Notes under the pieces: model-generated | Seen by the model: the letters and a program-made list of their open reading frames with translations, nothing else | The model's database searches: none | Told to the model about the DNA's origin: nothing | Shown: one piece after another, positions 16,032-60,333 of the stretch | Layout of the letters: each line of letters starts with the position of its first letter | How positions within the stretch are numbered: position 1 is the first letter of the stretch | Position numbers and translations under genes: made by a program | Source of the DNA: a virus | Length of the DNA stretch: 64,000 bases | Virus record (IMG/VR): IMGVR_UViG_3300006201_000016 | Location: 4,457 to 68,456 of that record | Direction: 5' to 3' (one strand)

Positions 16032-19000
16032 CTACCTATACGGATTGTTCTTCGCATTTGGACACGCTATCTCAAACATCAGTGCCTTCTTCGTCTCAGA
16101 AAGTCCTGAATCATCAAGCACCGCCCTAACCTCTTTCTGCGAAATACTGTGATTTCCGTCCGCATCAAAGCTGTTAAGCAAACTCTTATACTCCGAAGCA
16201 CTCATACCGAGCGGCCTAAGCTTCTTCCTGTAAAACTCCTGCTTTTCTTCACTCATATCGGAAATTTCAGGAATATACTCAGCCTTATATCCGGCATACG
16301 CCCTATCGGATCCTGCAAGCGCCTCTTCTGCAATGGCATTTATCTGTTTACGCAGCTCCCGCTGCGCTTCACTCTTTTCCTTGCTGTTCGGCAGTGTCGC
16401 AAGCTCGCGCTCCCTCTTCCTCAGATCTGACATTTCTTTCGAGGCCTCAAGATAATAGCTGTACATCTTATCTTCAGGCGTCCGCTGCCACGACTCCGCG
16501 CTGCCGCTCATATCAATATGATTTCTCTCCTTGTTTATGCTGTCCATAGCACTGTAAAAATCATTCTGAATGTTATTGCTATACACATTATCAGCAACAA
16601 ACGGACCCGTAACAACCTTTTCAAACACATTGCCGCCCTCCGTCGTCGCCGGAATAAGCACATCACCTATTATACCCGTATAACTATCAATAATATAGTC
16701 AATCTGCTTCGGAGAAAGCCCCTCGCCGTTATTTATACCAAGCTCCGCCGCCGCGCTGCCAAGCCACTTTGCTACCTCAGAAGTTTTCTCATCATACTGT
16801 TCATACGCATACAAATCCTTTAGCCTGTCCGGCACAATCGTACGCCCCGCAAAATCCTTGTTCTGCGGCAGATAATAAACCGCAGGCGCAAGAATATTAT
16901 TCTCGACAGGACTCTGCGGCGCAAAATTCGTCGCCACCGTATTTCCAAACCCGCGGAAAGCCTCATCGTCGCCGCCCATATACCTCAGCATTCTCTCCGG
17001 CAGCACTGAAAACAGTACCCCTGCTTCTCTGCTCTTCGGAATCCTCACAAACTTTCCGTCACTGTTTGGAATATAAAAGCAGTAATATGTATCCTTCGTG
17101 CGGTCATCAAGTCTGTTATACGCCTCCTTATGGTATGCCTGATTATAAAGATGAAGCGATACCGTCGGTATCGAAAGCACCATAGCCGCCTTCGCCGCAG
17201 TCGCAGGACTTGAACCCATAGAGCGGAAAAATTTATCAATACCCTGCACCGCAGGATTCAAATACGGCACAAATTTATCAACCGTCTTTGCGATATCTCC
17301 GGATCTTCCGAAGTTTACAGTCACTTCACCCGAATTATAAAGAGCCCTTTGAATATCATCGTACGAAGCATTCTTAAGTCCGCCCTCTGACCTCTTCAAA
17401 GTACCAAGATATTCTCCGTACCTCGGTGCCGCTTCCGTCAATTCATTTATTGCTGTAACAAGCTCAACAGGTTTGGAAAGCTTCTTCCGTAGTCCCTTCG
17501 GCGCACCGAGTCCGCCTTCCACATTAAAGTATCCGCCCTGCTTGCCTCCAAGCGCCACATACTCCTGAAACATCGGATCGTTTTTGACAATGCCTTTTGT
17601 GGCGTCAAACATATTCTTCATAAACTTAAATATATTGTTCTCCGTACCCTGTATATAAGCTGTCGGAACATCCCTTATCGCATTTCTTACGGCAAAAAAC
17701 GGATTAAGCCCTGTTATGAGCGCCTTAAAAGGTCCCGACCAATACTTATTTACAATATTAAGCATTTTAGTCGCAGTCTCATCCGACGGATTCCTCTGCA
17801 GCGTATTAAGCGCATTGTATATCTCCTCATTCACATTCATACGCACAGGCTTTCCGGTTTCCATAGCTACAACATAATAGTTTCCCTTGATATCTTTGCC
17901 CATAAGATTATCAAGCACATTGTCCATTGCGTCAAGCCCTTCTTCATTTAGAAGCTCGCTGCTGTTTTTTATTATCGTATTTTCATACTTCGCTATATTC
18001 CCGTCGGCAAGCTTTATCGCACCTTCAAACTGATCAGGATTCTTCCTTACCATATCAAGAATCGCCAGATTAAGCTCATTCATTCTCGCCGCCCTCACAG
18101 CCTTTTCCGTATGAATAGCAAGCGCAACATTCGGCGCAATTATAGACTTATTGCCGCCCTTTGCCTCTTTTACCATTTGCGCCGCGCTTATAACTTTCTT
18201 ATTGAATCCCTCTGTATTAGTTACACCGTCTCTCATCACAGGCACATAGTTACGGTACATCTTCTTAAGCTTTTCGCCGAGTTCTTTTGATATAAGCCCC
18301 GATTTCACATACCATTCATCAATCAGAACATCGTTATTCGCATATACAAAATCGCTGAGCGTCTTAAACTGAGGATACATTTTTTCAAAACTCTTTACAG
18401 CACTTCTACTTTCAGCAGCACTCACATTATCGAGTATCCCTTTACCCATCGGTCCTCTTTCTATATTTACCTTATGTAAAAGATACTCATTAAAAGCGTT
18501 CTTATCGGCCACCGAAGCAAAAACATCATCAAGCGCCATAACAACACCGTCAATCGAAGGAGCTATATTCCTGCCTGCCATATCCACCATACCGTTATGC
18601 AGTATACTGTCCGCCGTTCCTTTCGATTTACGCATATTTGAGGAAAGTATCTTCACTTTTTCATCGAGCCTCGCCAAAGGATAGAGATTGTCCACTGTCC
18701 CTGTATACAACTTGCGTGAAAAATCAAAAAGCCTTTTTTTTACACTTTCCGCAGCAGGTTTACTTTTTACGCTCATCTGATCTGCCACCATATTTTCTAT
18801 AAGAGGAACATCTTTCTTGACATTCTCAATTTCTTCTGATAACATAGCATTAAAAGTATTCCCTGTATTAGCATACGAGTATGACTCAGGAAGCTTTTGC
18901 TGTAATGAGGCTCGTAGCGTGCGGGGGTGCTTTTTTTTATACCTTTCATTATATTTGGCAGTGCTGATACCCCACATATTTTTAAATTTTATGGATTTCT

Positions 19001-22000
19001 TCGAATCCGAAACCATTTCTGTTATTACTGAATACCCATTTATCTTCTTTCCCAACTGTATTCGTATACCGTTCTTTGTGTTTACAACTTCTAAAACATC
19101 ATCGTAACTATCTATATAGTCAGCGACTTTAAGATAATCATCACGACTCAAAAAAATATCGCCCACCTCTTTCGGCTTTATATGATTATTATATGAATGT
19201 TTTAAATCATTTGCGCTGAGTTCAAGATAATACCCAGAAAGATCAACATCATCGCCTGTAATCCGTTTTACTTCTTCGATAAACCTGCCACCGGTTTTTC
19301 CATAAGCTTTTTCTACATCCTTAACCTTTCCTTCTACTGCATCAGTAATAAAACTTCTTATTTCCTTATCATTTGATAAAATCAGTCTTTCTCCGTTATC
19401 AAAAAGTTTTCTTTTTTTATATTTTACTTTTTCAGTTCCAACTTTAAGATATTCTGATAAATCATTCTGCATTAATCGTCTATTCTCAACAGTAACATTA
19501 TGAGGAATATCTTTCTTGACATTTCCCCGTACAGTTGGTAGTATACTATTAGTAGCAGAAGTAGATGCGGCAAACGCTTCGGGCGTAGGGTGCGGGGAGT
19601 TATCCATGTTCACCAGCAGCGGTGCTTCTGTTTTATTTTCGGATATATACGCGCTTATTACCTGCATCTTCTTTGCTTTACTATCAGGCACAGCTTCCAC
19701 AACATAATATGTACCATCAATCGCCTTTTCATATCTAACTCCAATCGATGGCGTTTGATCTGAATTTGCAAAAGCCTTAAATAATTTCTCGTCTTTCTTG
19801 TCAACGTTCAACAAATCTACATTGTCATAATTATTAAGTACATACTTAATACGGGCAACATCCTCACTGTTGCGCATTGTACTGTCAGCAGCTCCGCTTA
19901 TTCCGTGTCTTTCTTCTATGTGATTTATTGCACTTCCGTTTATATTGTGTGTATATCCTGCCACATCAACCCCAGTAAGCGCTCGCACATCTTTTTTTGC
20001 TTTGCCGCTTACATCACCTAAATTGTAATTCAATTTGCTTGCTACATTTTTATCGCTGAGATTTTTCACCTTTTCCACAAAGCCAAAGAGCCCGTTGTCG
20101 ATTGAATTTTTATAATCCTGTATCGTTTTTCTCTGCTCTAAAGTATGGCTTTCCTTAACGCCTATAACACTGCGTTCCTGTACCGGTGGATTAAGTTTAG
20201 TTGTTTGCAATTCCCCCGGCGCTACCGTTCTCGGCAGCTCCCTGTTTGCGCGCTCGCTGTCTATCGTATAAGGCCTTTCGACATTCTCATCTACATAGCT
20301 CTTGAGAATGCGTGGTCTTCCTTGCCCTATGGTATCCATATTGCGGCTCATTATCTCGTCAAGCTCCGGACTGTTAAATTCGCCGTAAAGTTTTCTTTTT
20401 TTATATTTTACTTTTTCAGTTCCAACTTTAAGATATTCTGATAAATCATTCTGCATTAATCGTCTATTCTCAACAGTAACATTATGAGGAATATCTTTCT
20501 TGACATTTCCCCGTACAGTTGGTAGTATACTATTAGTAGCAGTAGCACTGTTCAGTGCAATGCTGGTTGGCGTTTCGGACGTTTGGTGTTGGGCTTTGGT
20601 CATTCTACCGTCCAGTCTGCTTGCCGATACATCTGTATCGGCTTTTTTAATGTATGCAGATACTACATCTATTGTTTTATTTGCATTATCAGGAACTGCA
20701 CTCACAACATAATAGTGCCCGTCTACTCGTTTCTCATACCGAATGAGCGGTGCCGGAGAATTGTCAGAATTCAAAAAAGCCGTTGTCGTATCAGGCTCAC
20801 CTTTATTGTTTCTTACTATGTCAATATTGTCAGCGTTTCGCATTACATAGTCAATACGCGCAATATCATTAATATCAGCCATGCTGTTATCAGCCTTTCC
20901 TTTAATTCCGTGGCGTTGATTTATATGCTCTACAGTGTTTGAATGTAATCTGTGATGATATCCACTAACATCTTTACCTATTAAATCGCGTATTCTTAAA
21001 CTCTCCGGAATTGTGACTTCTGACATTTTTTTACTCGCCTTTTTGCTGACACTACTATTTCTCACTTTCTCTACAAATTTTTTTATTTCCTTATCTGTTG
21101 ATAAAATGTATTCGTTATAGACTTTTCTATGTTTTAAGTCCACAGTATCAGCATTTATGTACGATGTGCCTTTATACAACAAATCACCCGGTGTTACAGT
21201 TTTCGGCATTTCTCTACCTACACGCTCACTGTCTATTGTGTACGATTTTTTTATAATCTCGTTTTTTGGCGGCAAAAGGCCGCGCTGATTCGCAAAAGTA
21301 TCAGCGTCCCACGCCTCCAGCACGCCGTTATCAATCTGATTTTTACCCTTTCTCGCATTGCTCTCATCGGCAAGCCTTTTTAGCCTTTCGGCGTACGATT
21401 CAACCTCTGCCCTTTCACTCACGCTCAAATTAAGCAAGTCAGCGCTACTTGTAAGGTTTTTCCCACGCAGCTTCTTGAACGCCGCACCGATAAACTCCAT
21501 ACCTACTCCAAGCCCAAAATCAAACGCTTCCTGCTTTGCAAATTCATTTACCGCTTCCTCACCGCGCAGCCCCTGTTTATTAAGCACATAGTTTACATTG
21601 AGCGGTGCACCAAGTACAGCGTCAGCTGCCACACTCTTTAATGCGCCCTGCCCGAATTTTCCGAGCTTTGCCGCTCCCGGAAGCTTCATTGCCGCTTTTC
21701 CAACGGCTCCGCCAAACTTACCGTACGCCATTAAATACGGCAGCGCCTCGCCTACCATATTACCTGCAGCACCCGATGTAGTGTTATTGACAAGATCCGA
21801 TACCATTTTTTCTGCAGGTGTTTCCTCCTGCCAGCTAAAACGCGTAGTCGGCCCAAGCGCAAGACCGCGTCCGAGGCCCTGCATAAATCTCTCCACAGGT
21901 GAATTTGCCGCAGCAATTAAATCCTTTGCCGCCTGCACTTCTCTTTCCTCTTCAGTTGCATTCGCTTTAATTCCCGTCTGAATAGCCCTGTTTCTCGCTA

Positions 22001-32976: not shown

Positions 32977-34422
32977 CTATCTGTTCAAATAATCAAATTT
33001 GTTATATACATACGAGCTCTTGTGCAGATCAAGAGGATCATCGAGGACTATCTCTCGCTGTTTCTCCATTCTCGGAGCAATCGGATTTTCCATACACACA
33101 TATCGCCACTCGTCATATATATGGTCTTCCATCTTCGTGTCCACATCTTCGGGATTGTGCTCGGAATATTTTAAAAGCGGGATTGTCCTTATAAAATTCT
33201 TGCAGGTTGAGAAGACATAAAACATCGGTATACCGTTATCGTCAAACGCAAGCCTGTAATGACACTGCATCTTCCCTGCCATTCGTGTATTGTCCGCAGG
33301 CTCAAAGTAAACACGGTATCGTTCCATCATTGCCGCCACACTCTCACCCCTGCTTTCATCGAATATTGATGGATCGGCGATACCTATGATTCGTCTGCTG
33401 TGCAAGTTATCGTCCTCGTCCTCTATTCGCGCTATCTCTTCTGCTATTCTATTCGGTGACCACTTAAGACCCTCGTCAGGCTCTCCTGTACAGCCGTAGA
33501 GCTCTCTTATGCGATACAGTCTGCCGTCGTGATCTGCAGCATACCAGCCGACGGAAAAAGGCTTGCTGTATCCAAAATCGAAGCCCCTATATATAAGCCA
33601 CTCTTTCGGTATCCTGAACGGTGCAATTACATTGCTGCCTATTCTGTCATCGTAATGCTCGACATCGTCTATAAACTCCTCGAACACCTGCCCGCCGTCA
33701 ATTCCCCAGTTGCCGAGCCCTGCCACAAGATAACGCTTCGGATTTTCAATCTTCATCGTTTCAAACATCTTGCGGTCGGCGTCATCAAGCCATTCGTTAC
33801 ACATATAATTCGTCGTCATTGCGAGGATATCAGGCGTTTCGGGTGCGTCGAAAAACCTTTTCTTGCCCCAGAAGCTCTCGCTCCACGGATTAAATGTGAG
33901 AGTAAGCTGTTTGAATAGTCCTGTTTCATCAGGAATTTCGCCTCTGATTGATTCGTCAATCATATTGAAATCGGATTCTTTCTCAATCTCATATGCTTCT
34001 TCAATCCACGCCCAGCAAAGATATCCTTTTTCTACTGTTACCGACGCGATTCTGAGTGGATCGTCAAGCCCTCGAAATAAAATCTTTTGCCCTGTCGGCA
34101 TATATGTAGCCTCAAGCGGAGAGACTGTAAACTTCCACTTGTCAGCAACTCGCAAACGATTTGCCGCCCACTTGAGGTCTGTCCAGCAGCTATCCTTGAG
34201 AGTATTAAACACGCGCCTCACAACGAGCAGATTTGCGTCCGGATATTTCATCATATGGACGATGAACCATAGTGCTGTCGTCTTTGACTTCTTGCTTGCT
34301 CTGCTGCCTTTTATGACCCTGTATCGACCTCTGAAACGCCAAAACTTCCCATAGCCTTTACCGACAACATCAGGCAGTCTCACGCGTATCTCGTTAGTCT
34401 TCAATATCGTCAACCCCTTCAA
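32977..34422 (-). CDS. terL: Terminase large subunit, PBSX-like (phage B)
   Basis: KGSRASKKS, WIEEA, TFNPW, GFDFG, DHIYDEWRY. Confidence 0.95.
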   Translation of the reverse strand: MKGLTILKTNEIRVRLPDVVGKGYGKFWRFRGRYRVIKGSRASKKSKTTALWFIVHMMKYPDANLLVVRRVFNTLKDSCWTDLKWAANRLRVADKWKFTVSPLEATYMPTGQKILFRGLDDPLRIASVTVEKGYLCWAWIEEAYEIEKESDFNMIDESIRGEIPDETGLFKQLTLTFNPWSESFWGKKRFFDAPETPDILAMTTNYMCNEWLDDADRKMFETMKIENPKRYLVAGLGNWGIDGGQVFEEFIDDVEHYDDRIGSNVIAPFRIPKEWLIYRGFDFGYSKPFSVGWYAADHDGRLYRIRELYGCTGEPDEGLKWSPNRIAEEIARIEDEDDNLHSRRIIGIADPSIFDESRGESVAAMMERYRVYFEPADNTRMAGKMQCHYRLAFDDNGIPMFYVFSTCKNFIRTIPLLKYSEHNPEDVDTKMEDHIYDEWRYVCMENPIAPRMEKQREIVLDDPLDLHKSSYVYNKFDYLNR

Positions 34423-48441: not shown

Positions 48442-48550
48442 AAAGGCTGTAATGCTACAACCAAAGAAACAAATATATTGTACCATTACAGCCCGAAAAT
48501 GTCAATATTCGGGCATTTTTATGCCTTTTTTTCAGAAAGGAGTAGGTACA

Positions 48551-49627
48551 ATGGCAAAAGCAAAGAAACTTCCGTCCGGTGCTTGGCGCGTCCAAGTGTA
48601 TTCGCATACGGAAATTATAAACGGAAAAGAGAAACGAATATACAAGTCTTTTACATCAAACTTAAAAGAATCCGCAGAGCTTATGGCGGCCGAATTTTTA
48701 TTAAAAAAGAAAACAAGCCACAATCCTTTGCATAAGGATAATATATTGCTCCGCAGCGCTATTGACAATTACATAACAGCAAATATCGGCATACTGTCCC
48801 CTACTACTATTAACTCATACAAGAAAATCAAAGAATTTGCATTTCAGGAACTCCTTGATTGCAATATATACGATATAACAAAGAATGATCTTCAGCTTGC
48901 AGTATCGAAGGAATCGCAGAGAAAAGCGCTACGTACAGGTAAGGTATTATCTCCAAAAACGGTAAAGAATGAATACGGTTTGATATCCGCCGTACTCAAA
49001 TACTATGACATATATTTTAATATCAACCTTCCAAAATCACCTGCAAAGTTTATCGAGCTTCCACCTGCTGAGACTGTACTCAATACTATACACAACACTT
49101 GGATTGAACTTCCCGCTATTCTCGCCTGTTGGCTCTCGCTCTCTATGTCTGAAATCCGCGGTATAAAATGCTCATCAATACGAAACGGAACACTTTATAT
49201 TGAAAATGTGCTCATTGATGCCGAGACTAAAAATATAAGCAAAGCAACAGGAAAAGCCGAGGCGCGCATTCGCAAACATAGAATACCGCCGTACATAATG
49301 GACCTTATCAAGCAGGAAGAAAGCTATAAGCAGTATAAATTAAAAGGAAAGGACGATTACCTTATACAACTTACATATGCGCAGATTTATAGCAGGTTCA
49401 AAAGAATAATGAAACAAGCGGGATATGATATGTCATTTCATCAGCTCCGGCACCTGAACGCTTCTGTAATGCTGCTTCTGAATGTACCTGAAAAATATGC
49501 AATGGAGCGCGGCGGCTGGAAAACACCTCACACAATGAAGCGTGTATATCAGCATACATTCAGCGATGAACGCGAAAGAGTTGACGATGTAATAGATAAC
49601 TTCTTTGAGACAATAATATCAGAATAA
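48551..49627 (+). CDS. int: Tyrosine integrase (phage B)
   Basis: Arm-binding KLPSGAWRVQVY, HQLRH, GGW, catalytic Tyr in RVYQH. Confidence 0.9.
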   Translation: MAKAKKLPSGAWRVQVYSHTEIINGKEKRIYKSFTSNLKESAELMAAEFLLKKKTSHNPLHKDNILLRSAIDNYITANIGILSPTTINSYKKIKEFAFQELLDCNIYDITKNDLQLAVSKESQRKALRTGKVLSPKTVKNEYGLISAVLKYYDIYFNINLPKSPAKFIELPPAETVLNTIHNTWIELPAILACWLSLSMSEIRGIKCSSIRNGTLYIENVLIDAETKNISKATGKAEARIRKHRIPPYIMDLIKQEESYKQYKLKGKDDYLIQLTYAQIYSRFKRIMKQAGYDMSFHQLRHLNASVMLLLNVPEKYAMERGGWKTPHTMKRVYQHTFSDERERVDDVIDNFFETIISE

Positions 49628-49965: not shown

Positions 49966-50592
49966 ATGAAGAGAATTTTATGTATTACACTTATTCTTAT
50001 TTTGGCGTGTAGCTCGTTCGCGCTTGGTGCTGTTACAATGACGAGCATAAACGTATCGCCGAACACTGCGAGAGTTTGCGTAAATGGCAAATTAGTTACA
50101 ACTGATAACTTTAATTATAATGGTACATTGTATGTTCCTCTCCGATCTGGCTTTGAAACAGCTGGCGCTACTGTAACTTGGGATAATGTACATAAGCAGG
50201 CTGGTATAAAAGTGCCGACCACTGATTATCTGTTTATGCGATTCATAAGAGTTGAGCGTTGCTCTAAATTCGCCCTCGACTACTTATACAAAGACTTTGC
50301 AACATATAAAGATGCCTATTTATCACTTGTCAAAGAGGAAGCTGATGTACTCTCAAAAGATATGGTATATATTGGAACGGTAGACGAATATGATATTGAC
50401 AAAAGAATATCAGACTGTATGACGACCTCTATGAATATATCATCAAAATATATGAAAGGTGAAATATCAGCGACAGAAGCTGGACGATTAGAACTTGCAA
50501 ATTACACCGAATTACAAAAAATAAAGACCGAGCTTGATAATAGGGTTCTCCAGCGGTATTTACGAGATCCTAATGCTCAGTATTATTGGTAA
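49966..50592 (+). CDS. Exported protein with copper-amine-oxidase-like N-terminal domain
   Basis: Signal peptide; VNG...NYNGTLYVPLR..ETAGATVTWD. Confidence 0.75.
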   Translation: MKRILCITLILILACSSFALGAVTMTSINVSPNTARVCVNGKLVTTDNFNYNGTLYVPLRSGFETAGATVTWDNVHKQAGIKVPTTDYLFMRFIRVERCSKFALDYLYKDFATYKDAYLSLVKEEADVLSKDMVYIGTVDEYDIDKRISDCMTTSMNISSKYMKGEISATEAGRLELANYTELQKIKTELDNRVLQRYLRDPNAQYYW

Positions 50593-50605
50593 AAAGTATA
50601 GAAAT

Positions 50606-50640
50606 AGAAAAGGTCTCGTTAAATCGCGAGGCCTTTTCTT
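50606..50640. terminator. Bidirectional terminator
   Basis: GAAAAGGTCTCG...CGAGGCCTTTTC between convergent genes. Confidence 0.75.
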
Positions 50641-50652
50641 ATCTTCATTCTG

Positions 50653-53600
50653 CTACTCCTCCATCGCCGCAAACGCCGCCAATATATCCTCATCGTCATA
50701 TCCTGCGTCGAGTAGCGGATAATACCATTCGAGAAACGCTTCCTTGTTTGCGCTTGTCGGATTCGCCGTATACTCACTGTATGCCTTGTACGCCTTTCCC
50801 ATAAGATATTTGCCCGACTTGTTCGAGCTGCAGTTTTTCTTTTTGAGCGCCTTATTTATATCAGTAGTGCTGTATCCCATAGCCTCAACTTCGGCAAACC
50901 TTTCGTCAAGCCTGCTCTGATACTCACGCTTACGTTCCGCCGTCCTCTCTTCTTCGGGCAGCCCGTTCCACTCAGCTATAAGCCCGCGCATATCCTCCAC
51001 TTCATTTGAAAGCGCCTCCCTCATCATAGACTTTTTTTTGCCGTCTATATACGTCTTCGAGATACCATTCGCAAGCATATCGTTGTATATCATCGTAGCT
51101 GCTTCTGTATCATCGTCCGACACTGCCTGAAAATATATCTTCATAAACTTGCTTCTGTTCTCAGAAAGACCGATATTGTTAAGCATCTTCGCTTTCGCAT
51201 ACTGCCCCTCGTACCAATCGGTCATATTGAATGTGGTATCGAGGAACGCTTCAAAATCTCGAAGCAGCGTCGCGGTCGGGATTCCCGTACACTTACCCGC
51301 CGAAGCGACGATGTCCTTATTTATCTTCGCCCAGGTAAACGGTTCTTCTTCTCCCTTAGAGAACGCCCAAAGATTCTTACCAAACCGCTGCAGTGCCGCA
51401 AAGAAATCCGCAACACCCGCAAGCTCCATTCTGTCTGTACCTTGCCCGCCCCAAACTTGAACGATAGTATTACTGAGAGGTTCTATCGCAATGGTATTCT
51501 CAATGAAGCGCCCCTTAAAAGTCTCTGCGAAAAGCTCAAGCCAGCCCTTATCATCATCTCTCATCTTGTTACGCAGCGTAGCAACAAGCGACGCCATAAA
51601 AGCCGCCGTCAGATTCGACATCACAAATCCTGTTACCGCGCGCGCAGCCTGCACTCTCGCCTCGTGTGTTCCCTCTTCTATCGCAGTACGGATCGAACTT
51701 CTCACAAGATTGTAATTCTTAAGAGGCTCACTCATAAAGGAAGTATACACTTTGGCGAATCTGTCGTTTGACCTCATCATATTTGAGCGATGCAGGGTGC
51801 TATCGACAACCTGCGTTCTGTCTATGATTTCCTCGAAACGCTCGGAGCAAGCCGCATAAAATTCCTCGCTGCCACGCGCAAGTTCGGGTCTTTTGTCGGC
51901 TATTTCAAACTCAACAGCATTCCAAAGCTTCCCCCAAGCGATATTATCCATAGCGCCGATAGGTTCAAAAAATTTATCGGTTAGACTTGACTTGTTAAGA
52001 CAAAGTGACTTAAGCTCGCGCCCTGTATTATTCGTAAAGAAGCCCCAATCTTTCCATTTTGCAATAGAACTGTACCTCTTCACTTTTTCATAGTCGCCTT
52101 TTTTCGCAGCACCTTTGGCGATATACTTTGCATCAATCATCGCATATGCTCTCGTAATCGCTGTTGGCTGTTGGAACATAACGGAAAGATTCCAGCCTAT
52201 CATCGCAGCTTTATAGTTGCGTAGCAATCTATCCACTATCGGTGTCGCGCTTTCGCCGCTCATTCCTCCATTAAGGTCTACCATAAGTTTATTTATATAC
52301 GCATTGGCACTCGTTCCAAATTTCTGCGTTATGAGCTGTTTTACAACCCCGTTTTCACTTTTATAGTTAAATATTCTCTGCACATCAGAGAATACGCCAA
52401 GATACGCATTGTATGTCGTCGCATTATCCATCGTTTTTGTAAAGACATCGAATATGTCGCTGAGCAATATAGGATTGTTTGCGCCCTTTACGGTTGCCTT
52501 AAACTGCCCCTTATTCTTAATGCTCGGTTCACCCGGCACAGCGCCGATCGCAGACGATACGAAATCATTGTCAGATTCAATCGGGAAATAATGCTTTTCC
52601 CTTGCCTTCATATATCCGAACACCTGCATAGAAGCCTCGTTTATTAAGTCTGTGCTGTCTGTGTTAAGAATGCGGCTTATACCGTCAGCAACTTTCTTCT
52701 GTTCTTCCGAAAGAGACGCAATTATATTCGCCACATCGCCGACCGTCACATTCACAGGCGCATTTGACGTATTACGCACCCTTATACCGCCCTCGTATAT
52801 ATGAGCCTGTGCCTGCTCTCTCTTATCGAGAAGATAGAGCGACATTACCTGCGTATCCGTGAGTTCTATCCTGTGCCCGCCGCCCGTTTTAAACACTTTC
52901 TTATTTTCTCCCCACTTCACGGCTTCCGTACCTTCCGTGAGCTTCTGCATTTTTTCTATACAGACTGCAAGCGCCTCAGTTTTTTTATTCTGTGCACGCC
53001 GCAGATCCTTGAAAATCTGTTTGCCCGTTTCGCCGAGCTCGTCGAAGAAATCAAGCGGATTTACGATGTTCATATTAAAGTGCCTGTCGATTTCAGATGT
53101 AACAGCATTACGTGCATCTTTTTTGTCTTTCTTCGCTTTGAGGTCCGATATCAGCGCTTCTCCCGTATCCGCGACACTCTGTGCCCTTCCCTCTGCGAAC
53201 CTCTTGTTTGCCGTAGATACGATAAATTTCACAGCTCTGCACGCCTGGTAAAGGTCTTCAACCTCGCTGTCCGTCATATCCGCTATCGCCTTATCGCCTG
53301 CTCTGTCAATAATTGATTGCAGCATACCGTCAAGATCGGCATCAATATTAACGAAAAACTCCGATTTGCCCTTTTCTATGTCGTTTGCTATACGCAGAAG
53401 TTTTCCCTGCAATCCTTCAAGTGCCTCTCTTGTGTGCGCGCCCTGCCTGTCCGTTCTAAAATCGAGCGCCGCGAAAAACTCTGCCACAGGGCTGCGCAAA
53501 GCCTCAGGTATATGCTTATTGTCTGTTGGATTTTGCAGCTTCCTTACCATATCCCGCGTAATCGCTTTTATCTGATTTATACGCACGCGCCTGTCAGCTT

Positions 53601-56600
53601 TGCTTTTGCGTTCTTTGTTCATATTGATATAGTAATCCTTCGCCTCGCGGACTTTTTTGTCACGATCCGCGCGCACCTTGCTGAGCGCTTCTTTCTTTCT
53701 CTGTGCGCTTTCTGCCTTTATCTTTGCAATCTGCTCATCTTTTCGCTCACGCAGCTCCTGCATTTTATTTGCATCTTTGATTTTCTGCCTTTCGAGTTTA
53801 TCTGCTGCATTATCAGCAAATGTCTTTTTCGCCTGCGGCACATCGAAGAATTTTTCGAGGATATCAAGCGAGAGCATTTCAACCGCCTCATCATAAAAAT
53901 CGCCATATGGATTCTCGTATACAGGAGCAAGTCTTTCGAGCACATCCCTTATGGCTATAAGCTGCTCGGCAGGATTGGCGATACCCGCATCAAATAGCTC
54001 CGGATATTCTTCACAAAGTCCCGCATAAAATTCGTCAACCGAAAGGTTTGCATCGTTCACCAGCTTTATACTACCGAAGTTTGCTTTTCTGAAATCGTTA
54101 TAGCTGCCTTCATAGTATGCAAGCTCTTTTCTGTCAGCTTCAGCAAGCGTTATCGGCGTATTCCTGACACTGTTTATAAGGTCTGCGTAGCTATCCTGCA
54201 TTTCCGTGTTAAGCACCTCAGAAGCCGAGACAATATCCTCCGCAAGGAATGTCGCTCTCGCCTTGATATTACTATAATCAGTATCACTTCCGCCCATATT
54301 TTTATATATGGAAAGGAGCTCATCTGTTACATACGAGCTTTCGATACCCGAATTGTACTCACGCACAAGCTCTTTCGCATACTGTTCTGTGACCTTTCTG
54401 TCTACTTCCGTTCTGTCCGAACGCTTAACCTCACGACGCGCCCTTTCAAGTTGCTCACGCAGTATGTTATTCTCGCGCGCAAGACGCTTGTATGACTTCT
54501 CCTCATCGCTTTTTTTGCGAAGCGAAAAACGAATATCAGCATCATTTGTCGGCTTCTTGTTATCCACATTCTTTATTTGATTTGCATTAAATGCAATTAT
54601 GTGTACGGTATCCTCGTCAATGTTCATTTTGTTTATCCTGTTTGATTTTGACCCCCACTTTTCCGCCACAGTCTTGTCAATTATACCGTCGTAACCTAAA
54701 GCCTCTACAACAATTCGTGCAACTCCGTTGCCAACAGCGTTCCCATCTTCGTCCTCTATGTACAATTCATTGATGCGCGTTTTCAATTCTTCATACGTTA
54801 TACCGCCGTCATAATACGCTTCCGCGAGAATCCCCGTAACGTCAGATGTATCTTGAATAATCGCCTCTAAGGCATACGATACATTTTCAATATCGTCTTC
54901 CAGCACAGCTTCCACATCTCCGTAATAGTCATCTTCGTTTTCATAATCATCTATATCGTATAGCTCTGCATACTCCTCTCCCGACAGCAAGACAGTCCCG
55001 TTATTTTTGTCGACAATTACAGGATTTTTGATATTGAGATACACTTCATATCGCCCGAAAGTCTTTATATACTTTTCCTTTGATATTTCAAGCGCCTCGT
55101 CATAGTCAATATCTTCATTGTTGCTTAGTCTTTCAGCATATAACTCTATTTTGGCTTGCAGATCAGCGCTTTCTTCGCTTGCATAATTGTCATCTGCATC
55201 ATATATCATATTTGTAAAATAGAATCCAGCTCCATTATCACCCTCTGGATTCGCATAACTCCTGTCAAACACAGTAAAGCCATCGTTTGGCGTGCCGTGA
55301 TACATTACAAGCAAATTACCGTTTTCATCGCGCGCTTTACTATCCTTGAAATATTCTGCCTGCTCTTCCGTGAGGTTTCTACCGTTACTATCTCTTAGTG
55401 AAAATTTCTTGTTGCTTTTTGCGTCTTCGTTGGATATACTATCAGTAGAAGAGTTTTTCTCTCTGCTACCGTTCTGCGGTATTTCAGAAGAAAGGCTCTT
55501 TTTTTCAATTTGTATAGGCTGCAGTTTTATAATATCGTATACTTTCATTCCGCCGTTATTCTTACCGCCAACAAGCACTTTTGCAGTATAATCATTTTCT
55601 CCAACTGTAATCCTGACATTCGCTGTTGCAAAATCAATAATTGCATCCTTTCTCTCGTGACCTATATCTTCATTGATCCAGTCAGAAGCCGCCGCTATTA
55701 TCTCATCGATATTGTTCGTCGCACGCATTTTGTCAGCATATCTTTCGTTTTGTCTTCTCCTTATACGCTTTGTATATTCCGAGCTTGTCATCTCCCTTCT
55801 GCTTTGCCCGTCAATGTCAAGGTGCTGACCTTTTACATCTATGCCATTTGGATACTTTTCTTTAAGATTATCTCGGACAGTTCTTATCCAATCACTTCTA
55901 TCTACACCATCCAAAATATCCTCTTCAATCTCAACGAATGGCTTGTTGTCGGCATCGTATCGTATGGACTGCTTCGTGTCGTCGTTTGCCTTCTTCATAC
56001 TCTGCGTATTATCAAGCATTTCAAGCCACATCTTCTGTGCGTCTGTAAGCACGGAAATATCCGCGGCAGATACTATGCCGCGCACCTTGGCAATAAAATC
56101 TTTGAGTAAGTCGAGCAGCTTCTGCGCAAGTGTTCTGTCTGCTCCAACAAGGCGTGCAAATTCAGCCTCGTCTGTAAAGAGGTTTTCCGCATACTCAGCA
56201 ACGATTTCCTCTATGGCAACCTCATCTGAAATCTCGACACCGCTTTCTCTGTATGTCGCTTTTTTCCCCTCGATAGTATTACTTATATCTTCCTGCGTCA
56301 TCTCACCCATTACATACCGTTCAAAGGCATCGTAAAGCTCTGGCGATATCTCTTTAAGATTATGCGTAATCTCGTGTCTCGCAACCACCAGAAGCGGATC
56401 TGTTGCGTCTGCCGCGATATGGATTTCTCCGTTTTCATAAAAGCCGTTTGCTTCGAGCGTGCTTTCTATGACAATCTTCGTTCCTGTCTTCTCTGCGAGC
56501 TTTTCAAGCGTTGATTTTGTCTCTCTCGAAACTTTATTTCCGTATGACATATCAACGACGCGACCCTCATTCGTCTTTTCGTCCGCCAGATTGCGCTTTC

Positions 56601-58815
56601 TTGTTTCGAGCGATGCTGCTCTGTCGTTTTCTCCTGAGAGAAATGCTTTTGCCGCCGCGTCGTCCGCTATATAGGCATCATACACTCTGTTTGTCTCACG
56701 CACTCTGTCAAACGGAAGTCCCGCAAGTCCCGCTTTGTAATAGCTCGAAAAAGCCTTTGCCCAGCGCGGAAAATTGCTCGACTGAATATTACCTGTAAAT
56801 GTTCCGCCTCGGTTCGCTGCTGTGAACGCGCTTGAAAATGCCTTAGCCCCGTTGTCGCCGTAATTTCTTATCTCAGTTCTCACTGCTTCCGTTATCGGCG
56901 CTTCCTGATATATCGCCGGGGCATCACGGTATATCTGCGGCGATGTTTCACGCTCAATCATCTCGTTTGTAGCGTACTCGTCTACAAGCCCCTGCGCTTC
57001 GTCTGAAACGATTTTGGCAACTACTTGGCTTTCTGTATTTCTTGCTCCTGTGGCAAAATTAGAGCGTGATTTTGCATATCCCTTTATGGCGTTACGCTTC
57101 TCGGACATCGTGCCGTCGGGGACACCTCGAAGAGACATCTCTCTGAATATGTTTGCCGCCTGCGGTGTATTTATAATCGTCTCCGCCGCTCTGTTCGATA
57201 TCTCTCTACCCTCAAACACATCGCTTAATGCCTGCGCCGCTGCCCTTGCTATATCTGTGTCCACTTGTGCCCCTGTGAGCCTTTCTGTTAATGTAGAAAC
57301 AGAAAAATCGCGCGGAGATACATTTACCTTCTCGCCCTTTATGTCCTCTGATACGGCTTTATAGAGCTTTCCGAGCTGATAGTTTGTTACATTGCCGCCG
57401 TTTCCGTAAACATCGCCGACTTCATTTGCAAGGCGCGCCGTCGCTTCATTGCTCGAATTTCTGCCGTTATGCACAAGCTCTTCAATTACAGTATTGCTGC
57501 TTGAGAGATTATTTATCGACCTGCCGCCCCTGTATGTATTGATTTCACCTACGCCGCCGAACATTCCGCCGATAAGACCGCCGACAAGTCCCTCGTAGAG
57601 CACCTCTTTAAGGTCGAGATTCGCATATCCTTCACGCGTCGCGTCAAAATAGCCTTGTACTCCCGAACGCTCATCTATTGCAGGTATTACACCTTTGAGT
57701 GCAGGATTCACAAGCCCCGCGATAATTTCTTCCGCTCCTTCCGATGTTGCCGAAAGGCCCGTGCGTACAAGTGCCTGCGCAAGATCGCGCCCCTCTTTTG
57801 ATTTTATGAAGTCAAAGGAAGCCTTTCTCGCAACCCTCTCAATAGCCTCATCGCCAAGACCTTTTCCCGCCGCCTTTTTGAGCGGTGCCGCTATTGAGAA
57901 GAGCTTTTCTGTTCCGACTTCAACAGCAGCGGAAAGTCCTCCGTATGCCGCGGCAGCTTCAAGCGAAGCGCCGTTCTGCAGCGCCTCGTGTGTGCCGCCG
58001 CCGAAACTTCTCTCTGCCATAGGAAAGAGCATATTGCCGCCCGTAAGCACGCCTGCGGCAATATCAAGTCCCATCTGCTCTGCGCCAACACCGACATCAA
58101 TCGCAAGCTTGCCGAGGGCGCCAAGTCCCTGCTTGGCGGAAAGTACATCTCGGCTTCCCGAATCCGAAAGACTGCCGCCTTTATCTATGAGCTGTATGCC
58201 GCCGCCTTCCATAGAACCACGCTCTCTGAATTTCTTTATATCCTGTGCAAGCTGTGCTTTACGAAGTCCCGTAGCCGACTTATATTCTTCTTCAAGCTCC
58301 GCCGCAATGTCATTTGAGCTGCGCATTCCTGCGTCTTGTCTCCACTTGTCTTCAAGTGCGGGAATTACGCCTATTCCTGCACCATAAGAACCTACGGACT
58401 GCTTCGCAGCACCTATCGCCGCAAGTTTCACTCTGTCAAGCCCGCCGTCAACAGGTTTAAGTCCTGCATCACTTACCGCCCGTGCACTTGCTGGAATCCC
58501 TCTCTGCAAAAGGTCGTTTTGATATTCGGGAAGAGATACTGCAGGTTTGGGCTGCAATGATGTTTTCTGTGTCGATGCCGAAGCTCTGTTTGCCGTTGCT
58601 CTGCCTGCCTTTGCAAATTCACTCATATTCCTTTTTTCTGTTCTCTTCGGCTGTTCTGTCTTTGCCACTGTCTTTTTCGGCACCGCAGCAGCCGCACTGC
58701 TTGCCGCAAGTCCTAATGCGCTTGTGTTACTACCCGACTGTTTTTGTTTCGTCGGTGTAGTGTTTTTTCTTGCCTTGCCCACTTTTGCAAGCTCTGTCAT
58801 CGTTTTCTTTGCCAT
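50653..58815 (-). CDS. Large polyvalent virion/ejection protein (2720 aa): zincin-like peptidase, LPD3/BECR-like RNase, polyvalent ADP-ribosyltransferase-like domain
   Basis: ANGFY...RHEITH; DKMRA..NIDEI...HERKD...VYDI; RDENGNLLVMYHGT...GAGFYFT...GYDGI. Confidence 0.8.
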   Translation of the reverse strand: MAKKTMTELAKVGKARKNTTPTKQKQSGSNTSALGLAASSAAAAVPKKTVAKTEQPKRTEKRNMSEFAKAGRATANRASASTQKTSLQPKPAVSLPEYQNDLLQRGIPASARAVSDAGLKPVDGGLDRVKLAAIGAAKQSVGSYGAGIGVIPALEDKWRQDAGMRSSNDIAAELEEEYKSATGLRKAQLAQDIKKFRERGSMEGGGIQLIDKGGSLSDSGSRDVLSAKQGLGALGKLAIDVGVGAEQMGLDIAAGVLTGGNMLFPMAERSFGGGTHEALQNGASLEAAAAYGGLSAAVEVGTEKLFSIAAPLKKAAGKGLGDEAIERVARKASFDFIKSKEGRDLAQALVRTGLSATSEGAEEIIAGLVNPALKGVIPAIDERSGVQGYFDATREGYANLDLKEVLYEGLVGGLIGGMFGGVGEINTYRGGRSINNLSSSNTVIEELVHNGRNSSNEATARLANEVGDVYGNGGNVTNYQLGKLYKAVSEDIKGEKVNVSPRDFSVSTLTERLTGAQVDTDIARAAAQALSDVFEGREISNRAAETIINTPQAANIFREMSLRGVPDGTMSEKRNAIKGYAKSRSNFATGARNTESQVVAKIVSDEAQGLVDEYATNEMIERETSPQIYRDAPAIYQEAPITEAVRTEIRNYGDNGAKAFSSAFTAANRGGTFTGNIQSSNFPRWAKAFSSYYKAGLAGLPFDRVRETNRVYDAYIADDAAAKAFLSGENDRAASLETRKRNLADEKTNEGRVVDMSYGNKVSRETKSTLEKLAEKTGTKIVIESTLEANGFYENGEIHIAADATDPLLVVARHEITHNLKEISPELYDAFERYVMGEMTQEDISNTIEGKKATYRESGVEISDEVAIEEIVAEYAENLFTDEAEFARLVGADRTLAQKLLDLLKDFIAKVRGIVSAADISVLTDAQKMWLEMLDNTQSMKKANDDTKQSIRYDADNKPFVEIEEDILDGVDRSDWIRTVRDNLKEKYPNGIDVKGQHLDIDGQSRREMTSSEYTKRIRRRQNERYADKMRATNNIDEIIAAASDWINEDIGHERKDAIIDFATANVRITVGENDYTAKVLVGGKNNGGMKVYDIIKLQPIQIEKKSLSSEIPQNGSREKNSSTDSISNEDAKSNKKFSLRDSNGRNLTEEQAEYFKDSKARDENGNLLVMYHGTPNDGFTVFDRSYANPEGDNGAGFYFTNMIYDADDNYASEESADLQAKIELYAERLSNNEDIDYDEALEISKEKYIKTFGRYEVYLNIKNPVIVDKNNGTVLLSGEEYAELYDIDDYENEDDYYGDVEAVLEDDIENVSYALEAIIQDTSDVTGILAEAYYDGGITYEELKTRINELYIEDEDGNAVGNGVARIVVEALGYDGIIDKTVAEKWGSKSNRINKMNIDEDTVHIIAFNANQIKNVDNKKPTNDADIRFSLRKKSDEEKSYKRLARENNILREQLERARREVKRSDRTEVDRKVTEQYAKELVREYNSGIESSYVTDELLSIYKNMGGSDTDYSNIKARATFLAEDIVSASEVLNTEMQDSYADLINSVRNTPITLAEADRKELAYYEGSYNDFRKANFGSIKLVNDANLSVDEFYAGLCEEYPELFDAGIANPAEQLIAIRDVLERLAPVYENPYGDFYDEAVEMLSLDILEKFFDVPQAKKTFADNAADKLERQKIKDANKMQELRERKDEQIAKIKAESAQRKKEALSKVRADRDKKVREAKDYYINMNKERKSKADRRVRINQIKAITRDMVRKLQNPTDNKHIPEALRSPVAEFFAALDFRTDRQGAHTREALEGLQGKLLRIANDIEKGKSEFFVNIDADLDGMLQSIIDRAGDKAIADMTDSEVEDLYQACRAVKFIVSTANKRFAEGRAQSVADTGEALISDLKAKKDKKDARNAVTSEIDRHFNMNIVNPLDFFDELGETGKQIFKDLRRAQNKKTEALAVCIEKMQKLTEGTEAVKWGENKKVFKTGGGHRIELTDTQVMSLYLLDKREQAQAHIYEGGIRVRNTSNAPVNVTVGDVANIIASLSEEQKKVADGISRILNTDSTDLINEASMQVFGYMKAREKHYFPIESDNDFVSSAIGAVPGEPSIKNKGQFKATVKGANNPILLSDIFDVFTKTMDNATTYNAYLGVFSDVQRIFNYKSENGVVKQLITQKFGTSANAYINKLMVDLNGGMSGESATPIVDRLLRNYKAAMIGWNLSVMFQQPTAITRAYAMIDAKYIAKGAAKKGDYEKVKRYSSIAKWKDWGFFTNNTGRELKSLCLNKSSLTDKFFEPIGAMDNIAWGKLWNAVEFEIADKRPELARGSEEFYAACSERFEEIIDRTQVVDSTLHRSNMMRSNDRFAKVYTSFMSEPLKNYNLVRSSIRTAIEEGTHEARVQAARAVTGFVMSNLTAAFMASLVATLRNKMRDDDKGWLELFAETFKGRFIENTIAIEPLSNTIVQVWGGQGTDRMELAGVADFFAALQRFGKNLWAFSKGEEEPFTWAKINKDIVASAGKCTGIPTATLLRDFEAFLDTTFNMTDWYEGQYAKAKMLNNIGLSENRSKFMKIYFQAVSDDDTEAATMIYNDMLANGISKTYIDGKKKSMMREALSNEVEDMRGLIAEWNGLPEEERTAERKREYQSRLDERFAEVEAMGYSTTDINKALKKKNCSSNKSGKYLMGKAYKAYSEYTANPTSANKEAFLEWYYPLLDAGYDDEDILAAFAAMEE
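55412..55505 (+). ncRNA. Intragenic antisense promoter and hairpin sRNA after the LPD3/BECR-like domain
   Basis: TTGCTT-17-TATACT; RNA about 55447-55505 with a 14-bp closing stem (3 G-U), inner stems and a T7 end. Confidence 0.65.
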
Positions 58816-58827
58816 TTTATCCCCCGA

Positions 58828-60333
58828 TTACAACAAAAGCCCTTCTTCGTCATCATTCACATATTTCATAAAGTCCTTGAATTGACTATCGGTAAAAAGA
58901 TATCCGTACTTCTTAACCCACGCATTCCCTGTCAAACCCACTTCTTCGCCCGTTTCAGGATCAAGACCATTCACCATACAATGATATCCGTAGGACACAG
59001 CGTCTGAATCGTTCTGTTGCTGATTGAATTTCTGCTGTGAAAGCGCAAGATTACCTCTTGAAACAGATTCGCTTGCTTGATTATGTCTCATCGTTTCATC
59101 AAGTTTGGCTTGCGCAAGTGCATTTTCTATCGCATTTTGTTCGGCTGATGCCTTACCGGCCACGATATTATCATACCTGTTTGTTGCGAGTTCACTCAAA
59201 TACTGACTTATAGAAAGTCCGTCACTCATTCTTTTGCTGAACCTGTTATAATCTCCGACATCAAGGTCTGACAGCGCCGAAAGAAGCTGATAACTGCTGT
59301 TAAAATCGTTTTGATACCTGTTGTACGCTGCCTCCTGCAATGTGGGAATTATATTTTGTAATTCTTGATCGTATCGGCTTTTGGCCTGCTGTGCAGCCGA
59401 CATAGCATAAGAAGATGGCATACCGCCTGTCATCGCCGCATACTCTGCAAGTGTGTCGTTCATTGCCGCATCGCCAAGTCGCCCGTACTCTCCCGCATAG
59501 ATATTATAAAGATCGTCTTCAAGAGGATTGTACGAAAACGCTTCCCTATTTCGTAGTGACGACAAAACCTCTTGAATATCGTCATCATACTGACTTTTAT
59601 AGTTCTCCATATCCTCCATATATTTTGTATATGCCTCCAGCTCCTGGGCGTTTGCTATATACTTCTCATATTTTGCCCTTCTTTCCGAATCATCGTATTT
59701 AGTGTACGGTGATTCATAAGTTTTATTGAGGTAGCCTTGATAAAGATTTCTCATCTGATCTGAGCCCATTCCAGACGCAAAGCTATAGTCCAAAGCCGTG
59801 CCATAATCGAGATCGGGATCATAACCAAGTTGTGAGTTCAGTGCCGCTTCCGCTGCTTTCATAACAGCATCTATGCCCTCACCCGAATATTGATACTTTC
59901 CCTTATTCGTTATACGGCTACTACCTGAGCCGCCTGGCACAAGCACACCCTGCCCGTTCTGCATAGTCCATTTTCTGCCCTGTGCATCTATCGAAGAATA
60001 TCCGTCAGGAAGTCTTGCTCCATTATTGAGAAATGTAAGACCGTTTTCAATATATCCACCTTGAGCATTCCCCGCTTTGTCATAAACGGTTGTGCTGTAT
60101 CGGTTTGAAGATGAGCTCTTGCTGCCAGAGCTTTTCTTTACGTTCGTTGATGTATTTTTACTTTGGCTCTGATACGCATTTGCTGTGAATCCTCCGTTTT
60201 TAGTCGTAACAGAAACCGAACCGTCAGAATTTTTCTTCCAAGTGCTTCCGTCACTCGCCTTATATGTACTTCCTGCTTTCATATTGTTTGCAATATCTTG
60301 ACCTTTTTTTGAACCTATTTTATAGCCTGCCAT
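58828..60333 (-). CDS. Internal virion/ejection protein (phage B)
   Basis: FSYNP..D.LY, AMTGG..SSYA..AAQQ motifs; directly upstream of the giant protein. Confidence 0.7.
   Translation of the reverse strand: MAGYKIGSKKGQDIANNMKAGSTYKASDGSTWKKNSDGSVSVTTKNGGFTANAYQSQSKNTSTNVKKSSGSKSSSSNRYSTTVYDKAGNAQGGYIENGLTFLNNGARLPDGYSSIDAQGRKWTMQNGQGVLVPGGSGSSRITNKGKYQYSGEGIDAVMKAAEAALNSQLGYDPDLDYGTALDYSFASGMGSDQMRNLYQGYLNKTYESPYTKYDDSERRAKYEKYIANAQELEAYTKYMEDMENYKSQYDDDIQEVLSSLRNREAFSYNPLEDDLYNIYAGEYGRLGDAAMNDTLAEYAAMTGGMPSSYAMSAAQQAKSRYDQELQNIIPTLQEAAYNRYQNDFNSSYQLLSALSDLDVGDYNRFSKRMSDGLSISQYLSELATNRYDNIVAGKASAEQNAIENALAQAKLDETMRHNQASESVSRGNLALSQQKFNQQQNDSDAVSYGYHCMVNGLDPETGEEVGLTGNAWVKKYGYLFTDSQFKDFMKYVNDDEEGLLL

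Follow-up and report, generated by a model that had tools for sequence, protein, structure and literature searches.

We analysed a 64,000-nt stretch of viral DNA (IMG/VR record IMGVR_UViG_3300006201_000016, positions 4,457 to 68,456; hereafter the window), which carries on its minus strand an open reading frame (ORF) for a polyvalent protein of 2720 amino acids, P0001. Within this protein, an LPD3-type domain is separated from an ART-PolyVal domain by a linker, EKKSLSSEIPQNGSREKNSSTDSISNEDAKSNKK, and the codons of this linker are overprinted on the plus strand by a predicted antisense unit that consists of a promoter, a hairpin RNA opposite residues 1104–1123 and a run of seven U residues. The coordinates of these features, together with those of three sister units in the ORF of a 2126-aa protein, are compiled in Table 1.

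Table 1. Antisense units in the window and the coding features they overlap or follow
Feature	Position	Strand	Remarks
–35-like hexamer TTGCTT	55412..55417	+	3/6 versus TTGACA; opposite sense codons AAA AGC AAC (K S N)
–10 hexamer TATACT	55435..55440	+	5/6 consensus; 17 nt after –35
Predicted antisense RNA, ~59 nt	55447..55505	+	start ~7 nt past –10; ends inferred
Closed hairpin	55448-55501	+	24 pairs, 4 of them G-U
U7 (T7) run	55499-55505	+	direct reading of sequence
Linker codons overprinted by the unit	55404..55506	-	residues 1104-1137 of the 2720-aa protein
LPD3-type domain	55507..55965	-	residues ~951-1103; unit directly behind
ART-PolyVal domain	54547..55329	-	residues 1163-1423 (Pfam); downstream of linker, no unit behind
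2720-aa polyvalent-protein ORF (P0001)	50653..58815	-	host of the unit
Sister unit behind PBECR3 domain 3, 2126-aa protein	18817..18940	+	TTGACA-17-TAACAT; 87-nt closed hairpin, –36.1; U-tract
Sister unit behind PBECR3 domain 2, 2126-aa protein	19516..19638	+	TTGACA-17-TAGTAT; 86-nt closed hairpin, –28.6
Sister unit behind PBECR3 domain 1, 2126-aa protein	20500..20649	+	TTGACA-17-TAGTAT; 113-nt RNA, body plus separate terminator hairpin, –37.1

Anatomy of the unit and of the domain in front of it

The original prediction had placed a promoter, TTGCTT-17-TATACT, on the plus strand opposite the linker, and it is present at 55412–55440. Its –10 hexamer is the reverse complement of the sense codons AGT ATA, which encode the Ser-Ile pair of the linker motif DSIS. 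Folding of positions 55447–55506 (plus strand) with RNAfold confirmed the proposed hairpin RNA, with an outer stem formed by AGAAGAGUUUUUCU and AGAAAGGCUCUUU, inner UCUG/CAGA and UACCGU/GCGGUA stems and the U7 end, at –25.4 kcal/mol; the predicted structure is.(((((((((((((.((((.((((((...))))))...))))))))))))))))). in dot-bracket notation. The fold has a z-score of –5.10, and none of 200 shuffled sequences was equally stable. The opposite strand, which corresponds to the mRNA, folds more weakly at this position (–17.6 kcal/mol, z –3.31), because four G-U pairs of the antisense hairpin turn into A-C. At 55447–55506 the antisense strand thus folds better than the sense strand (–25.4 versus –17.6 kcal/mol), as it does at the homologous sites of the relatives described below. 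Among 42628 sliding 60-nt segments from both strands of the whole window, 32 reach –25.4 kcal/mol, and the hairpin at 55448–55501 has the lowest G+C content (0.40) of these. The strongest 60-nt fold of the window, at 57940–58011 on the minus strand (–34.8 kcal/mol, G+C 0.70), belongs to the sense strand of the N-terminal part of the 2720-aa ORF.

Taken alone, the promoter does not rise above chance. TTGCTT-17-TATACT agrees with the consensus at 8 of 12 positions, which is lower than the threshold of 9/12 in our promoter scan, and the 2720-aa ORF contains 11 promoter-like sites at or above that threshold compared with 12.6 expected. The hairpin at 55448–55501 was not called as a terminator by the same scan because its long stem is interrupted. 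A detector that looks for promoter, closed hairpin and U-tract in combination finds exactly one unit on the plus strand inside the 2720-aa ORF, and dinucleotide shuffling of the ORF never produced an equal one (0 of 100 shuffles; at most –25 kcal/mol, RNA of at most 70 nt). Equal units scattered through the ORF, the outcome named beforehand as speaking against the proposal, were thus not observed. Detector scans also upheld the statement that no such unit stands behind the neighbouring peptidase or ART domains.

An antisense ORF of 199 codons (55510–56109, plus strand) begins just past the U-tract and spans the LPD3 domain. That it might be an overlapping gene, with the hairpin as its leader, was weighed and rejected: of 28 homologous loci, only one keeps the corresponding frame open throughout the domain (mean of 2.6 stops), and the ORF, which lies in the codon-opposite frame, is therefore a by-product. 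A search of positions 50000–59500 of the window against Rfam 15 gave no match at E ≤ 1.

The domain in front of the unit had been described as an LPD3-like nuclease domain with a BECR-like fold, and the two parts of this description fared differently. The LPD3 assignment holds. Pfam LPD3 (PF18798) matches residues 980–1089 with 23.8 bits in a scan of the whole protein, below the cutoff of 27, and residues 940–1111 scanned alone reach 31.0 bits (E 3.1e-7), above this gathering cutoff. Protein atlas clusters (0.92) and LPD3-type viral polyvalent proteins in BFVD (E 2e-14) lead to the same assignment. An AlphaFold model of the domain (pLDDT 89.3) predicts a soluble α/β fold of ~155 aa, the final strand of which ends at model residue 161, corresponding to residue 1100 of P0001; the terminator of the unit ends no more than ~40 nt from the end of the domain, as is characteristic of the class.

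The BECR nuclease part is weakly supported by structure. With VIA-align, the model is closest to a CdiA-CT toxin domain (6cp9_A; Z 4.6, rmsd 3.7, 99 aligned residues) and 7m5f_C (4.6), followed by BrnT (3u97, 4.5), a Salmonella toxin (7vd7, 4.5), RelE (1wmi, 4.2) and ParE (8c26, 4.1). All BECR-fold matches lie below Z 5, with NTF2-like folds interleaved. A Foldseek search of the model against pdb returned nothing at E ≤ 0.001, and a sequence-profile search of PDB sequences with the domain gave no matches. In an alignment of 17 domain sequences (A1), the invariant polar residues are E69, S73, D89, K90, R92, E99, H114, R116, D118, Y137, Y154 and D155. Because invariant His, Arg, Lys, Asp, Glu and Tyr residues are among them, the alignment suggests that the LPD3 domain is an enzyme; that it is a BECR-like nuclease (RNase) is plausible from the model, the resemblance being weak (Z 4.6). 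The function of LPD domains is called elusive in the main text of Iyer et al. (2017, PMC5512222).

The unit in related viral loci

Comparison with related loci shows the site to be a member of a conserved class of predicted compact antisense units that are overprinted on the polyvalent-protein genes of phages. By their sequence anatomy, these units comprise a σ70-type promoter with a spacer of 16–18 nt, an RNA that opens directly with the first strand of a long closed hairpin, and a terminal U-tract; they sit immediately 3′ of the LPD3-type coding region, with sister units behind PBECR3 and some MuF_C domains.

Searching proteins with residues 940–1170 as the query yielded 86 large proteins of 35–49% identity. 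Alignment A1 led to 45 viral loci with DNA, 44 of which were long enough to test, and across viral loci with the same LPD3-type domain the identity of the domain is 33–54% at the amino acid level. The DNA of all relatives comes from IMG/VR contigs, many of them from one sample set and mutually related. Because the contigs are related, the 44 loci (or 33 after removal of redundancy) are not independent events; the distinct RNA sequences perhaps represent ~15–20 separate lineages, a figure that is our judgement rather than a computed value. For the 2720-aa gene itself no close relative emerged: GenBank phages gave one distant match (32.5%), viral contigs scanned with the single sequence gave no match, and genome contigs gave two loci that match the ART start only.

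We folded every 60-nt segment on both strands of each ~3.4-kb locus. In 34 of the 44 loci the best fold of the whole locus is antisense and starts a few nt behind the codon that aligns with the domain end; the antisense zone behind the domain is in the top 1% of folds of the locus in 39, and in all 44 it folds more stably there than the sense strand does. By the strict detector, 26 of the 33 non-redundant loci have a full unit at the domain end, with promoters matching 9–12 of 12 positions and mostly a 17-nt spacer; the remaining seven keep the hairpin and show a near-miss in the promoter or the U-tract. The typical promoter reads TTGACA-17-TAnAnT, often with TGTG before the –10 element, and at the aligned place of the window's –35 element the homologous loci carry TTGACA or TTGACT. 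The first paired base follows the –10 element after 5–8 nt in the relatives and after 7 nt in the window's copy.

Twelve long loci (140 kb, from related phages) contain exactly one unit each, always behind the LPD3-type domain; the sense strand of these loci has no unit, and the rest of their ORFs of ~1600–4000 aa is free of further ones. A 22-nt RNA motif had 22 exact matches in viral contigs, all of which adjoin the domain; the motif, which covers one RNA sub-family in one collection, revealed no copy of the RNA standing apart from polyvalent genes. Rfam searches of 18 homologous loci returned only tRNAs and chance-level matches, located away from the units. In one locus, L035, the polyvalent ORF stops at position 1556, directly after an LPD3-like domain, and a complete unit (TTGACG-17-TATCCT, hairpin and U-tract, 1657–1558) lies just past the stop codon, outside any reading frame. 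This unit could also be the gene's own terminator.

As a class, the RNAs are ~60–85 nt long, and their hairpins have 20–28 pairs in two or three helices. The outer stem typically consists of 11–16 pairs and is followed by an internal loop on the 5′ side, one or two inner helices and an apical tetraloop. The internal loop has 4–7 nt and is mostly pyrimidine (GCUUCU, UUUCU, CUUUCU etc.; ~20 of 29), and the tetraloop is GNRA in 14 of 29 RNAs and UUCG, UUCA or U-rich in the others. The window's RNA is more fully paired than those of its relatives, with single-base bulges only, and lacks the pyrimidine internal loop that is typical of them. It also shows no sequence likeness to the RNAs of the other units among the relatives.

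The primary sequence of the RNA is generally no more conserved than that of the domain, with no conservation beyond close relatives, so that no sequence motif can be defined for the RNA family. A covariance model of the LPD3-linked RNAs (R1) contains 0.549 bits per position and was rejected as a detector because of this low information and because it scores the window's own site at just 17.6 bits. Across the full 68-kb record, its only match at E ≤ 1 is located at 19546–19639 (21.1 bits, E 0.025) and involves nothing but the generic base of the stem and the U-tail. With this reservation, the earlier observation that the RNA has no evident likeness to those behind the PBECR3 domains (assigned there to a "phage A") roughly stands.

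Although its sequence drifts, the RNA keeps its pairing. In an alignment made by MAFFT and not fitted to the structure, 10 of the 11 pairs of the outer stem show compensatory double changes. The stem cells are paired in 90.3% of cases, compared with 71.3 ± 1.4% for shuffled partners (0 of 500 as high) and 33–52% for slid ones, and 68 double-change cells were observed compared with 20.9 ± 5.4. The promoter left a similar trace in the peptide. The linkers share a motif of S-I, 5–7 residues and V-N, which equals the –10 and –35 boxes in reverse (AGT ATA for TATACT; GTC AA for TTGAC). The amino acids at the boxes vary (S, N, T or I followed by I, V or M), while the promoter letters are constant: the Ile codon at the –10 box is ATA in 14 of 14 relatives (14% background in the same ORFs), the Val codon there is GTA in 9 of 9 (17% background), and the Val codon at the –35 box is GTC in 21 of 21, a figure that is partly forced by the detector. 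Stem covariation, the greater stability of the antisense strand owing to its G-U pairs, codon use at the boxes and the L035 unit outside any reading frame together show, at the level of sequence comparison, that selection acts on the DNA or RNA rather than on the linker peptide, and that the S-I...V-N motif is a translated imprint of the predicted –10 and –35 boxes.

Units are not confined to the LPD3-type domain. In the 2126-aa protein (16032–22412), each of three PBECR3 domains is followed by a unit whose terminator lies within ~25 nt of the domain end, although the unit at 20500–20649 fails the stricter test for a single closed hairpin. As had been proposed, all four sites in the window (three PBECR3, one LPD3) are thus followed by a unit. 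The 2126-aa ORF also contains a direct repeat of 159 nt with 99% identity (19403–19561 and 20387–20545, 984 nt apart); since each copy of the repeat holds an antisense promoter, a PBECR3 domain and its unit were recently duplicated as a block. The most extensive array was found in locus L022 (98–3338), in which six consensus units, spaced ~600 nt apart in 3.5 kb, stand one behind each consecutive domain: two MuF_C, an unnamed LPD3-like domain, LPD3, PBECR3 and one domain that is cut by the end of the locus. Their promoters consist of TTGACA or TTGACT, 17 nt and TATACT.

In the loci annotated with Pfam, the strict detector found a unit behind 8 of 11 LPD3, 1 of 3 MuF_C and 1 of 1 PBECR3 domains, and behind none of the PBECR5 (0/3), ART-PolyVal (0/2), ADPrib_exo_Tox (0/1) and LPD23 (0/2) domains. 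The original prediction of a general, domain-specific system therefore needs to be narrowed: units do recur behind specific families, but not behind every RNase domain. "All RNase domains" is too broad because PBECR5, a named BECR nuclease family, lacks the unit in three of three cases. Two further hairpins were seen, one behind MuF_C (L014:2646–2720, –32.2, rank 0.0017, equal on both strands) and one behind ADPrib_exo_Tox (L029:2690–2770, –29.0 antisense versus –21.1 sense). The detector accepted no promoter for either of them, and they may be divergent or decayed units.

Possible roles of the antisense RNAs

With its promoter, hairpin and terminator, the site is very probably a complete small RNA gene, as judged from its sequence features, whose product would be a regulator or an antidote tied to the domain. 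By analogy to known antisense RNAs, the mechanism that we prefer is an RNA safeguard that acts on the mRNA just behind a toxic domain, and we give it about an even chance of being correct. The predicted small RNA would be transcribed by the host RNA polymerase from the prophage or the incoming genome and would be abundant. Four RNA runs with the same species label contributed 0 reads to the whole ORF, which is no measure of its expression either way. Being perfectly complementary, it would pair with the polyvalent mRNA right behind the probably toxic, nuclease-like module. The resulting duplex would be cut by an activity of the RNase III type, and the upstream mRNA fragment, now without a stop codon and a protective 3′ end, would be degraded. 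The outcome would be a limit on leaky or premature production of the domain.

In its design, this arrangement resembles the OOP RNA of phage λ, likewise a short phage RNA with its own promoter and intrinsic terminator that is transcribed convergently and complements the 3′ end of a coding sequence whose protein is toxic when over-made; there is no relation in sequence or in Rfam. According to the part of PMC5869508 that deals with this RNA, OOP is transcribed from its own promoter pO to the terminator tO, overlaps the 3′ end of cII by 52 nt and suppresses CII toxicity, with RNase III-dependent cleavage of the target mRNA. In contrast to OOP, the units described here lie inside one giant ORF, on an inter-domain linker, and several can occur per gene, one for each domain; moreover, the RNA is essentially one closed hairpin.

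The txpA/RatA and bsrG/SR4 loci of Bacillus are also comparable, being loci of Firmicute prophages with a convergent antisense RNA over the 3′ end of the message. The relevant part of PMC4152353 describes RatA and SR4 as prophage-encoded RNAs that overlap the 3′ ends of the toxin mRNAs txpA and bsrG and cause RNase III-dependent decay, in which the duplex is cut by RNase III and then degraded by exonucleases. These type I toxins are small hydrophobic peptides encoded on their own mRNAs, whereas the putative toxin here is a soluble domain of a 2720-aa ORF, and the RNAs are 60–115 nt rather than 180–220 nt long and overlap only the linker. The unit of L035, just past the stop codon, has the same 3′-end overlap as OOP and RatA/SR4.

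A number of observations weigh against such a safeguard. Both the toxicity and the nuclease activity of LPD3 are putative. The window's promoter, with its 8 of 12 positions, lacks the TTGACA and TRTG (TGTG) motifs of the relatives, and the –35 hexamer TTGCTT, degenerate compared with the family, may make this copy, in which the –10 box, the hairpin and the terminator are intact, weaker in expression than its relatives. A cis regulator of the whole gene would call for a single unit in each gene, and a partner at the level of the domain would better fit the six units of L022 and the three of the 2126-aa protein. The apical loops, often GNRA or UUCG tetraloops, would be poorly suited for loop-loop kissing, which is typical of fast antisense RNAs. 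Finally, the duplex would form after the codons of the domain, so that translation of the domain would not be directly blocked.

Some of these points would be accommodated by the main rival, an RNA antidote that is type III-like in its logic and that we regard as possible but rather doubtful. Here, the hairpin RNA would bind to the nuclease-like domain next to it and act as its inhibitor or as a pseudo-substrate. It could do so in the cell that produces the protein, or it could be made from the genome on entry and, like a timer, shut the injected domain off; adjacency would keep toxin and antidote linked during domain shuffling. Such a role agrees with the occurrence of one unit per domain rather than per gene, with the restriction of units to certain families (none behind ART, LPD23 or peptidase domains) and with the fact that a unit stays with its upstream domain irrespective of whether ART, a stop codon or a stretch resembling a coiled coil comes next. 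The compact, stable hairpins with GNRA or UUCG caps and, in ~20 of 29, a pyrimidine internal loop resemble protein-bound RNA hairpins, their near-consensus promoters are predicted to be strong, and the nearest structures to the LPD3 model are those of BECR toxins that depend on a partner for immunity (CdiA-CT, BrnT, RelE, ParE). The tetraloops and the pairing to the mRNA beyond the codons of the domain likewise favour a domain-binding RNA. However, PBECR5 nuclease domains lack the unit in 3/3 cases, the RNA diverges as fast as the domain and has no conserved recognition sequence, and the window's copy has no internal loop. The adjacency of RNA and domain by itself leads to co-divergence, so that their linkage adds no independent support.

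For an RNA that binds the domain, the closest analogues would be the type III systems ToxIN, CptIN and TenpIN, in which an RNA neutralises a genetically linked endoribonuclease. The hallmarks of these systems are absent: type III antitoxins are tandem repeats, transcribed together with the toxin from a position upstream of it and processed by the toxin itself, whereas the unit here consists of one antisense hairpin with a promoter of its own. The fold of ToxN also differs from the LPD3/BECR-like fold. In its broadest form, which we put forward only tentatively and hold improbable, the antidote model would turn giant injected effectors into toxin-antidote cassettes, with the linkers behind LPD3, PBECR3 and some MuF_C domains encoding, backwards, the RNA that silences the domain in front. 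If true, the RNA of such a cassette could protect the lysogen and the producing cell or time the shut-off of an injected nuclease; as an RNA, it would inhibit nucleases of the BECR type, and its gene would be an antitoxin gene overprinted on the reading frame of the toxin itself.

We consider it unlikely that the act of transcription, and not the RNA, is what matters, i.e. that the convergent promoter and the immediate terminator serve as an interference element or insulator in the late operon or, as a variant, that the hairpin chiefly terminates antisense or convergent transcripts. In agreement with this possibility, the promoter boxes, the base of the stem and the U-tract are the most conserved parts while the inner RNA sequence drifts, the RNA contains little beyond a terminator hairpin, and the hairpin of L035 is found where a gene terminator is expected. 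Nevertheless, 20–28 pairs exceed what termination needs, the architecture is kept by compensatory change, and neither the preference for certain domains nor the recurrence once per domain would be explained. Very improbable, in our view, is a signal at the DNA level, i.e. an inverted repeat that marks module boundaries and promotes recombination or template switching during domain shuffling. The units do lie at module boundaries, and two of them are part of the near-exact 159-nt repeat whose copies are 984 nt apart, but the greater stability of the antisense strand in 44/44 loci indicates an RNA (or single strand) read in one direction, and recombination would have no use for a U-tract on one side only or for a promoter whose spacing and distance are fixed.

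Least probable of all is an origin of the unit by chance or as a side effect of selection for the linker peptide. In favour of it, the promoter in the window, taken alone, does not exceed chance level, the linkers are of low complexity and the peptide motif is partly conserved. Against this stand the shuffled ORFs (0/100 with an equal unit), the position conserved in 34–39 of 44 loci, the covarying stems, the promoter letters that are fixed through otherwise rare codons while the amino acids at the boxes vary, and the persistence of the L035 unit outside any coding frame. The objection that the loci are near-identical copies is contradicted by the domain identity of 33–54%.

Antisense RNAs encoded in cis are of a known kind; what is new here is the overprinting of a linker, the presence of one unit per domain and the imprint of the promoter in the peptide. 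With LPD3, ART-PolyVal, PBECR3 and LPD38 domains, the host gene belongs to the polyvalent proteins that PMC5512222 describes for phages and conjugative elements. The words "antisense", "promoter" or "linker" do not occur in the main text of that paper, the supplements lying outside the search, and in the searchable literature, to which subscription journals do not belong, we found no account of polyvalent or MuF genes that contain genes for antisense RNAs. If the RNAs are made, a layer of small RNA genes would be hidden within the largest phage genes, invisible to protein-centred annotation, and the "conserved linker motif" of polyvalent proteins would be a promoter read backwards. The units would offer a handle on how phages carry several toxic domains in one late gene without harm to themselves or the lysogen, and on why the domain modules of polyvalent proteins shuffle as units. 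Further units can be sought at domain ends by a simple signature, namely antisense TTGACA-17-TAnAnT, then a closed hairpin, then a U-tract.

Additional loci and composition of the viral record

Two of the related loci deviate from the usual organization. L047 is a viral contig of 5.2 kb in which a 143-codon ORF keeps only the C-terminal half of the domain, and two intact consensus units (TTGACA-17-TATCAT and TTGACA-17-TATAAT) are present at L047:1465–2215; antisense units may thus outlive the gene. In L043, a G+C-rich relative, two tRNA genes (452–677, minus strand) are located just upstream of the polyvalent ORF. The hairpin of this locus lacks a promoter at the distance seen in other loci, but a TGTGATATACT motif lies ~45 nt further up.

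The IMG/VR record of 68456 nt is rated 100% complete as one virus. The window contains genes for a serine integrase (13020–14447) and a tyrosine integrase (48452–49627), one terminase gene (32977–34422), portal-like genes at 2345–4096 and 30960–32960, and two giant polyvalent genes. With this gene content, the record looks like two or three joined elements.

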